A stretch of DNA of 64,000 nucleotides from Escherichia coli. GTDB lineage: Bacteria > Pseudomonadota > Gammaproteobacteria > Enterobacterales > Enterobacteriaceae. Below are positions 3,601-6,600 of this stretch, in pieces. The stretch lies in NCBI RefSeq assembly GCF_001677475.2, contig NZ_CP012498.1. The stretch is one strand, 5' to 3'. The position numbers are program-made. How positions within the stretch are numbered: the first letter of the stretch is position 1; each line of letters starts with the position of its first letter.

Positions 3601-6600
3601 CTATGCACCGGGCCACGATGCTGGTTGCTCCCTGCATTATCAGTAGTGATGGGGACCGGGATGGGTTACCGACAGTATTACTGGAGGCCATGGCGCAGGG
3701 ATTGCCTGTTATTTCTACCCGGGTTGCCGGGATCCCTGAACTGGTGACTGACGGCCACACTGGATTCTGTATTGATCCTGAAAAACCGGGTGTGATGGCT
3801 GATGCCATTGAAAGAATGGCTGGTGATGCCGTGCTGAGGAAGTATCTGGCGCTGAATGCGAGAAAACGAATTGAAGATGCATTTGATATTGATCGTAACA
3901 CCCGGCGACTGCGTGAAATATTTGAGGATGCAATTCAGGCAGGAATACAGGCAGGAATACAGGAGAGAGTTCAGTGAGAGTGGCCTATGTTTGTGCAGAT
4001 CCTGGTATTCCTGTTTTTGGATATAAAGGTGCTTCCATTCATATCCAGGGAATGCTCAGGGAAATGCTGAACGCCGGTATGGATGTGACATTGTTTACCT
4101 GCCGGGGATTTTCGCCAGTACCGGAAGAATTTCGTGCTGTCAGGGTTGTCCCTCTTTTTGATTTATCCGGAACAGATTCAGATGAGGAAAAAGCCAGTCA
4201 AGCACTCAGGGGAAATCAAGAACTGAAGAGTAGGTTGGTGTCTGCCGGTCCTTTTGATGTTGTTTATGAGCGCTATTCTCTCTGGAGTTTTGCCGGGATG
4301 GAATATGCCCGGAATGCAGGGATTCCGGGCATACTGGAGGTTAATGCTCCCCTTCCGCTGGAGCAGAAACGCTGGCGAAAGATGGTGATGGAGCATGAAG
4401 CTTATCAAGTACTGGAGCTTGTACTGGAGCATGCCAGTACGGTGATAGCAGTTTCGCCCGGTATCCGTCGTTGGTTGGAGACATTACCTGCAACAGAAGG
4501 AAAAGTCCATGTTGTCCGAAATGGCGTGAATCCGGCTTCTTTTTATAAAAAAAACATGGCGCGGGGTAGCGTTTTTACTGTGGTATTTTCCGGAACCCTG
4601 AAGCCCTGGCACGGGATGGATACCTTGGCAGAAGCGTTTATTTTACTGCGTCGTCAGAGAACAGATATTAGTCTTTCTATCATCGGGGATGGACCGGAGC
4701 GTCCAGCACTGGAGAATGCTTTCCGGAGTGCTGGTGTAGATAACGCAGTGGTATTTCATGGTGGTGTTGCTCATTGTGATGTTCCTGCATTGCTTGCTTG
4801 TGCTGATGCGGGGGTTGCTCCCTATCCGCATTTCGATGATTTTTATTTTTCGCCTCTTAAAATTTATGAATATATGGCGGCAGAATTGCCAGTAATCACA
4901 TCTCGAACCGGAGATCTTGATAGCATTGTAAAGCATGAAAAAACCGGACTTCTGATCCCACCAGAATCACCGTCAGCACTATCTGATGCAATTATCACTT
5001 TGGCTGACTCCCCTTCGTTGTGCCGGAAAATGGGGGAAGCCGGAGGTCTATATGTGAAACAGAATAGCTGGGAGAATGTGCTTAGGAAAATCTGGTTATA
5101 TGCCGATATTACGCTGCTGACTGGAGGATTGGATGAAGTCTGAACATCAGCAGGTATTACGAACGTTCTGGCCGGCCATCCGGACACAGAAGATGCTGTT
5201 GTCAAGTGTATTTCTGACATTACTTCTGACCAGTATTATCCGGTTACTGGAACCCTGGCCATTAGCACTTGCTGTGGATTTTGTTCTGGGAAAAGCCAGA
5301 TATGATGACTTTTCTTGGTTTTCGGTCGGGAATGACACTATCCAAGACTATCTGTTACCGGGATGTGCTCTGGGTGTTATTGCTATAGCTGTGCTAAAGG
5401 GATTATGTGGCTATTTCACCGCAACCAGAATGGCCTTGGCCGGAAGCAGGATCCTGAGCATTATCCGGAAGTCACTGTTTACACATCTGCTAAGATTACC
5501 CCTTTCAGCTCATCAGGAGTTGAGAGCCGGTGATCTGACTATGAGACTGATAAATGATATCGGAATGATGCGTGATGCGATGGTGACAGCTGTAATGCCT
5601 CTGTTATCTAGCCTTACAGTGTTCACTGGTATGGCCGGCATCATGCTCTGGCTGAACTGGCAACTGACAGTGGTAGCATTGCTTCCGGTTCCACTTCTTG
5701 TGCTGGTGACAGTCTGGAGAGGAAGACGGATCAGAGATGTCAACCGGGTTCAGAGACAGCATGAAGGGGAACTTGCTGCCCGTTCAGCAGAGTTCATGAC
5801 TGCGATAGCAACAGTTCAGGCCATGGCACTGGAGAAAGATGCCATAAGGGCATTTGAGGGACCGGAACGACAGAGTCTACAACAGAATGTGAAAGCCAGA
5901 AAACAGGCTGTCGGGCTGGAGTGTCTGATTGAACTGTTGATTGCGGGGATCACAGCTATGGTATTACTGCTGGGAGCCAGAAGTGTTCTGAGCGGAAAAA
6001 TGTCAGCCGGAGAATTACTGGTTTTTTTATCCTACCTGAAAAATATGTTCCGTCCTGTACGTGAGTTTGCAAGATACAGTACGCGTCTGATCAGGGCATT
6101 TACAGCTGGAGAAAGGGTTGCAGGGTTACTGCATTATCTGCCAGTAGAATACTCTGTTGAGGGAAAAAAACTGCCGTTATCAGAGATGCCGGATATTCGC
6201 TTTGAAAATGTTAGTTTCACTTACCGAGAGGGAAAGAATGGAGAGTGCGGTAGAACTCTTCATAATGTCAGTTTCCATCTCCCGTCGGGTCATACTCTGG
6301 CAGTGACCGGACCCTCGGGGGCTGGAAAATCCACGCTCAGCCGTTTATTGTTACGGTTATATGAGCCGGATTCTGGTCGTATCCTTTTGGGAAAGAATGA
6401 GTTGCACGAGTTTTGTGTGACATCTCTGCGTCAGAGGATTGGATATCTACCTCAGGAGCCCCTGTTATTCGGATACAGTATTCGGGATAATATTACGCTG
6501 GGAGCAGGAAAGACCTTCAGTGATGATGAAATAATTGCAGCGGCCAGACAGGCCAATGCACATGAGTTCATCAGCGGGCTACCACAGGGATATAATACTA

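Follow-up and report, generated by a model that had tools for sequence, protein, structure and literature searches.

Phase-variable loci for glycosyltransferases of LOS/LPS synthesis include lgtA, lgtC, and lgtG of Neisseria, which contain homopolymeric tracts, and lic2A and lgtC of Haemophilus, in which the repeated units are tetranucleotides. The units of such tracts are not divisible by three, they are usually present in many copies near the 5′ end of the gene, and they bring about switching of the reading frame at a high rate. The Fut enzymes of Helicobacter pylori are members of the glycosyltransferase family GT10. Two of them, the alpha-1,3/4-fucosyltransferases FutA and FutB, contain C-terminal heptad repeats that are encoded by in-frame units of 21 bp and are present in 2–17 copies (PMC2583950). 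These repeats, known as a "molecular ruler," mediate dimerisation and vary in number within the population of a single patient as well as during passage, and the size of the fucosylated O-chain is correlated with how many of them are present (PMC2583950).

The feature described here is a tandem repeat of 12 nt in a plasmid-borne GT4 glycosyltransferase gene of Escherichia coli. It resembles the LOS/LPS contingency loci in that a short tandem repeat, which is open to slipped-strand mispairing, is present in the gene for a putative surface-glycan glycosyltransferase. However, in contrast to these loci the unit is in frame, it is present in only 2–3 copies at the extreme 3′ end of the gene, and it cannot act as a switch of expression. 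In terms of function, the nearest analogue is FutA/FutB, with which it shares an in-frame repeat near the 3′ end, a helical C-terminal segment that lies outside the catalytic core, and a number of units that depends upon the strain. It differs from them in that only two or three units of four residues are found, with one clonal change in more than 900 contigs, no heptad or leucine-zipper pattern is seen, and the enzyme is from family GT4 rather than GT10. The closest correspondence is with the ordinary microindels of bacterial coding sequences that arise by slippage between short direct repeats, to which class the feature belongs by virtue of its perfect short in-frame unit, a 4-nt CAGG microhomology, its permissive terminus and its restriction to a single lineage with stable inheritance.

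The glycosyltransferase gene and its locus

The stretch of DNA that was analysed, which we will refer to as the window, consists of 64,000 nucleotides of the E. coli contig NZ_CP012498.1. The gene containing the repeat is located at 2730–3977 on the plus strand, and its ORF, Pfam matches, RefSeq orthologue, AlphaFold model and Foldseek matches all identify the 415 aa product as a GT4 glycosyltransferase of the GT-B fold. An alternative ATG start at 2718 is possible, and RefSeq as well as all database entries use the equivalent of 2730. The assignment of the host gene to GT4, which was part of the original prediction, is borne out by matches above the gathering cut-offs to PF00534 (Glycos_transf_1; 113.5 bits, cut-off 26.4), PF13439 (Glyco_transf_4; 38 bits, cut-off 28.5) and PF13692 (Glyco_trans_1_4). 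For the AlphaFold model of the 415 aa protein (pLDDT 91.2, pTM 0.90), the best Foldseek matches in the PDB were BshA, MshA and PimB′, with E values of 1e-21 to 1e-24; the match of the predicted structure to BshA (6n1x) has an E value of 3e-24 and TM scores of 0.75/0.82. The solved GT4 enzymes of the GT-B fold that were matched are 357–400 residues long. Several public sources name the protein "colanic acid biosynthesis glycosyltransferase WcaL." As its score against TIGR04005 (125.6 bits) is far below the equivalog cut-off of 537.6, this specific name is unsupported and appears to be an over-annotation. The best NCBIfam match, EpsE (NF041876), scored 177.8 against a cut-off of 400.

When the indel is disregarded, seven synonymous and no non-synonymous substitutions distinguish the gene from that of a two-unit plasmid (locus L001), which indicates that the enzyme is under purifying selection. 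The repeat lies beyond the part of the protein that is conserved. In homologues with up to 59% identity, from Enterobacterales, Pasteurellaceae, Neisseria and others, conservation extends to the end of the motif ...DIDRN..LR.IF, with F398 as the last nearly invariant column; past this motif their tails are 0 to about 15 residues long and unrelated in sequence. In the AlphaFold model, residues 387–414 form one terminal helix, with a pLDDT of 93 for residues 401–410 and of 78 for residues 411–415. In view of the fairly high confidence of this model over the repeat, it is possible that the helix of the tail is structured and has a role. The possibility that it serves as an amphipathic membrane anchor was considered and rejected, as its hydrophobic moment was 0.18 compared to a mean of 0.23 for permuted sequences, 64% of which were at least as high.

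The gene is the second of eight that form a putative sugar-polymer locus (1547–11737, plus strand), delineated from ORFs, Pfam, RefSeq and NCBIfam matches and flanked by IS fragments. These genes, which are tightly packed or overlapping, encode, in order, a GT-like protein (386 aa, without a Pfam match), two GT4 enzymes, an ABC exporter in which the TMD and NBD are fused, two APH-type kinases, an outer-membrane protein that RefSeq names "alginate export family," and a protein similar to UDP-glucose 6-dehydrogenase. A promoter-like site at 1460–1488 and a hairpin at 11712–11732 were observed as pattern matches only. The eight genes look like an uncharacterised plasmid-borne locus for the synthesis and export of a glycan or glycolipid. 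Among 5426 complete E. coli genomes this locus is found in 17, in all cases on plasmids, and the closest relatives are plasmids of 138–242 kb from bovine, food, bird and human E. coli. Glycosyltransferase or polysaccharide genes are not mentioned in PMC10562709, which deals with RM9088, and PMC7175801, where CP012499 and CP012500 are mentioned for a transposon only, does not describe the eight-gene locus.

Other parts of the window provide information on the plasmid. The enterohemolysin operon ehxCABD is present at 45697–52820 (plus strand), with EhxA (NF033203, 2289 bits), an HlyB-type ABC exporter and an HlyD adaptor, and hence the window belongs to a large virulence plasmid of the EHEC/STEC type. 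On the minus strand, at 14175–17225, an uninterrupted ORF of 1016 aa codes for a homologue of the formate dehydrogenase-N alpha subunit (TIGR01553, 1543 bits). It reads ARLCHGPTVA, with a cysteine at the position where chromosomal FdnG of E. coli contains a TGA-encoded selenocysteine. The window also contains about 95% identical copies of elements of 1.4–1.5 kb located some 22 kb apart (20406–21887 and 42420–43902; 25346–26690 and, inverted, 38813–40168), which account for the paired tandem repeats reported at 21508/43519 and 21565/43578; these diverged elements are probably IS or intron-related.

The tandem repeat at the 3′ end of the gene

The original prediction was of an imperfect tandem repeat, gcaattcaggca ggaatacaggca ggaatacaggag, encoding IQAGIQAGIQ just before the stop codon. 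Such a repeat is present and the encoded sequence is as predicted, but its coordinates had been given as 3929–3964, which is one base off. The codon-aligned stretch of 36 nt, GCAATTCAGGCA GGAATACAGGCA GGAATACAGGAG, is at 3930–3965 on the plus strand, with a codon starting at 3930, and it codes for AIQAGIQAGIQE, which corresponds to residues 401–412 of the protein. It is followed by RVQ and the TGA stop codon, so that four codons (the E of the last unit and RVQ) separate IQAGIQAGIQ from the stop. Its tandem nature was supported by Tandem Repeats Finder, which reported an array at 3932–3963 with a period of 12, 2.7 copies, 95% matches and a score of 57, the highest for any tandem repeat in the 64-kb window. 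Compared to itself at an offset of 12, the repeat matches exactly over 16 consecutive nt, and it gives 19 matches if one mismatch is allowed. In 200 dinucleotide shuffles of the window, for which all periods between 4 and 60 were considered, these two values reached at most 15 and 16, respectively. A pattern scan revealed no promoter-like or terminator-like site overlapping the repeat.

The comparison with related sequences described below led to a different view of the number of copies. As the relatives are exactly 12 nt shorter, the array is accounted for by one perfect duplication of CAGGCAGGAATA and not by three old degenerate copies; the two copies of this unit in the window are identical at 12 of 12 positions, and only they constitute the true repeat. 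The imperfect copy of the prediction is thus unduplicated flanking sequence, which the relatives contain in its original form, and the interpretation of this first copy as an old, degenerate repeat was rejected. Its likeness to the next unit (AATTCAGG versus AATACAGG) involves seven of eight nucleotides at offset 12, which is at the chance level, since by simple arithmetic about 20 such matches per offset are expected in 64 kb. In pairwise and multiple DNA alignments, the extra unit, which is absent from the relatives and adds AGIQ to the protein, was placed at 3936–3947 (plus strand); within the repeat this placement is ambiguous and 3948–3959 is equally possible. The units are 12 nt long and in frame inside the coding sequence, and the ORF is intact in both alleles.

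Copy number of the repeat in related sequences

The number of units is not fixed among homologues: the window has three, and all other relatives that were examined have two. All 17 plasmids carrying the gene in complete E. coli genomes were exactly 12 nt shorter at this position (encoding AIQAGIQE), a query of 8001 nt aligning with these records over 7989 nt and a query of 201 nt over 189 nt. The nine PLSDB plasmids with this gene, which are from E. coli/Escherichia, were also all of the two-unit type, and in each the alignment ended at query position 1234, within the repeat. In direct alignments the difference is a clean gap of 12 nt, with the relatives reading GCAATT-CAGGCAGGAATACAGGAG, which codes for AIQAGIQE. 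The three-unit allele was not found in any of the 5426 complete E. coli genomes or in PLSDB, and the exact 26-nt 5′ flank, CTGCGTGAAATATTTGAGGATGCAAT, had no matches in JGI metagenome contigs.

At the protein level, 14 of the 15 members listed for the 90%-identity cluster are 411 aa long (two units) and one is 415 aa long; the cluster has 33 members, and among the others an additional, rare length allele may have escaped notice. The two-unit alleles listed occur together on more than 900 contigs. The 415 aa protein (P0122), which is ANO92401.1 and the product of the window, is present on 14–22 contigs, and the inserted AGIQ is its only difference from the common allele P0121. The natural alleles of 411 and 415 aa thus differ by a whole unit, corresponding to exactly one unit of DNA. 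Ten constructed alleles, having one, four or five units on the background of P0121, three or one on those of P0123 and P0124, or a duplicated Thr-type unit on those of P0125 and P0127, had no exact match in a collection of 15 billion proteins, a look-up that covers these constructed backgrounds only; a 419 aa version of the protein was likewise not present in the public collection. Only two length alleles were found among the listed cluster members, the more than 900 contigs that carry them and the constructed-allele look-up. Natural alleles with point substitutions that break the repeat (ACA, GTA, GTT) are unchanged in length, and the replacements of A by T and of I by V inside the repeat are tolerated by natural alleles.

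Origin of the extra unit

The ancestral state of the repeat is two units, since these are also found in the allele P0127 (locus L006), an outgroup with a DNA divergence of about 11% (about 135 differences in 1236 nt). Three other close lineages, which are 7–12 substitutions away, have two units as well, and in 8 kb of sequence 26 substitutions separate the window from L001, a plasmid of the two-unit type. In the four other loci that were retrieved, the three-unit allele occurs on a single DNA background only, which shows 100% identity to that of the window over 6977, 6977, 6977, and 1494 nt, respectively. This identity suggests a single event within one clone, followed by stable inheritance.

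The sequence CAGACAGG (Thr) is present in P0125, P0126, and P0127, and CAGGCAGG (Ala) is found in P0121 and in the window. A plausible series of changes, and the simplest, would start with CAGACAGG (ACA), lead to CAGGCAGG (GCA) and end with the 12-bp duplication seen in P0122 and the window. The A-to-G change in such a series would have lengthened the bracketing microhomology to CAGG...CAGG. The perfect 12-bp tandem duplication by which CAGGCAGGAATA would have become CAGGCAGGAATACAGGCAGGAATA at the 3′ end of the gene was likely caused by replication slippage, or by a microhomology-mediated event, between the short direct repeats, CAGG, on either side of it, as judged from the product. The exact, in-register and in-frame difference of one unit is what slipped-strand or microhomology duplication yields. 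The original prediction that slipped-strand mispairing can alter the copy number is supported by this gain of one whole in-frame unit, but the locus is not hypervariable.

The duplication adds AGIQ to the C-terminal tail, a predicted helix that is located past the conserved core of the GT-B fold and is free to vary in both length and sequence among homologues. As residues 387–414 are predicted to form one helix, the insertion is expected to add approximately one turn. From the lack of conservation of this segment, the three-unit allele is probably near-neutral in terms of selection.

The overlapping downstream gene

The next gene of the locus (3974–5143, plus strand) also codes for a GT4 enzyme, based upon its ORF and Pfam matches, and RefSeq uses the same start. 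Its GTG start codon (3974–3976) overlaps the TGA stop codon of the upstream gene (3975–3977) in the form GTGA, and the same overlap was called in all related loci; stop-start overlaps of this type are typical of translational coupling. The sequence AGGAG at 3959–3963 (plus strand), which is 10 nt 5′ of this GTG and within the last repeat unit, is likely the Shine-Dalgarno sequence of the downstream gene. In all six of the aligned alleles ACAGGAG is invariant, and neighbouring positions vary. Both the GTGA overlap and AGGAG are undisturbed by the extra unit because they are in the last, unduplicated unit. A weak second repeat with a 12-nt period, CAGGGAAATGCT, is located near the 5′ end of the downstream gene (4046–4068, plus strand); it consists of two copies with an indel (Tandem Repeats Finder score 39) and is out of whole-codon register.

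Alternative explanations

Two alternative accounts concern the origin of the difference in copy number. Assemblers occasionally miscount short tandem repeats, and the extra copy could in principle be a sequencing or assembly artefact; this is extremely improbable, as the same allele is present in GCA_016125675.1, GCA_016118635.1, GCA_018682865.1 and the ENA metagenome ERZ27246348, which are from independent projects, the GenBank protein ANO92401.1 on a contig of 213,847 bp also has three units, and a repeat of 36 nt is far below any read length. It could also be argued that three units are ancestral and that the two-unit alleles have lost one, since slippage deletes units as readily as it duplicates them and the window lineage is not unambiguously nested within a two-unit clade, the four close lineages being about equidistant. 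However, we consider this very unlikely. It would require two or more independent deletions, and the identity of the two copies in the window is that predicted for a young duplication. The distant outgroup has two units in a sequence, GTTCAGACAGGAATACAGGAG, that does not form a tandem repeat in its own right, and two units are also present in all but one of the four close lineages.

Other alternatives assign a function to the copy number. Glycosyltransferase genes of other bacteria often carry such repeats, and the location of this one on a virulence plasmid with ehxCABD, together with the difference in copy number between otherwise nearly identical plasmids, would be compatible with a hypermutable contingency locus in which frequent slippage modulates the enzyme or a surface polysaccharide. 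This is nevertheless a very unlikely interpretation. An in-frame unit of 12 nt makes an on/off switch impossible, two or three units (2.7 by Tandem Repeats Finder) fall short of a long tract with many copies, no more than two length alleles are seen across more than 900 contigs with the longer one on one identical background, the one-, four- and five-unit alleles predicted by this account are absent from the collection of 15 billion proteins, and the natural substitutions ACA, GTA, and GTT break the DNA repeat without any change in length. Hence, of the features that define a phase-variable contingency locus, viz. a unit not divisible by three or a promoter location, a long tract, and variation among close isolates, none is seen here, and of those that define a VNTR, in-frame tandem units and whole-unit alleles are present but recurrent change leading to many alleles is not. 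It has also to be considered that the purine-rich repeat acts at the RNA level, with its copy number tuning the coupled expression of the downstream GT4 gene. The invariance of ACAGGAG across alleles, the location of AGGAG so close to a start that overlaps the stop, and the fact that an added unit brings a further AGGA/CAGG motif speak for this, but the distance from AGGAG to GTG is unaltered by the duplication and the additional Shine-Dalgarno-like motif is more than 20 nt upstream of the start, which is outside the usual functional spacing. Such an effect, which would explain the conservation of the last unit but not the duplication, is very improbable. Lastly, by analogy with the Fut enzymes, the C-terminal helix might be a functional spacer or interaction element that makes contact with, for example, the membrane, the ABC exporter or the GT4 enzyme with which it is co-translated, and in which each IQAG forms about one turn (roughly 6 Å) and three units subtly shift the length or composition of the polysaccharide; we regard this as highly unlikely.

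In comparison to these alternatives, it is very probable that the repeat results from one recent 12-bp duplication by slippage or microhomology in the permissive tail of a GT4 enzyme, which is near-neutral and has been stable in one plasmid lineage. The feature is thus best read as a rare in-frame short tandem duplication polymorphism, a known type of event, and not as a contingency locus. Nothing in this analysis indicates rapid switching or a functional importance of the repeat.

Significance of the repeat

The repeat should not be handled as a locus of phase variation or antigenic variation. If the spacer interpretation were true, it would represent a miniature analogue of the heptad "ruler" of H. 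pylori FutA and FutB. The uncharacterised eight-gene glycan-export locus is of more interest than the repeat, which is uninformative about it. The repeat provides a clean case of an in-frame microduplication that took place once, in the tail of a protein where it is permitted; this is of little wider import, and at most this 12-bp length polymorphism may serve as a lineage marker that tags one clone of a family of ehx-positive E. coli plasmids.
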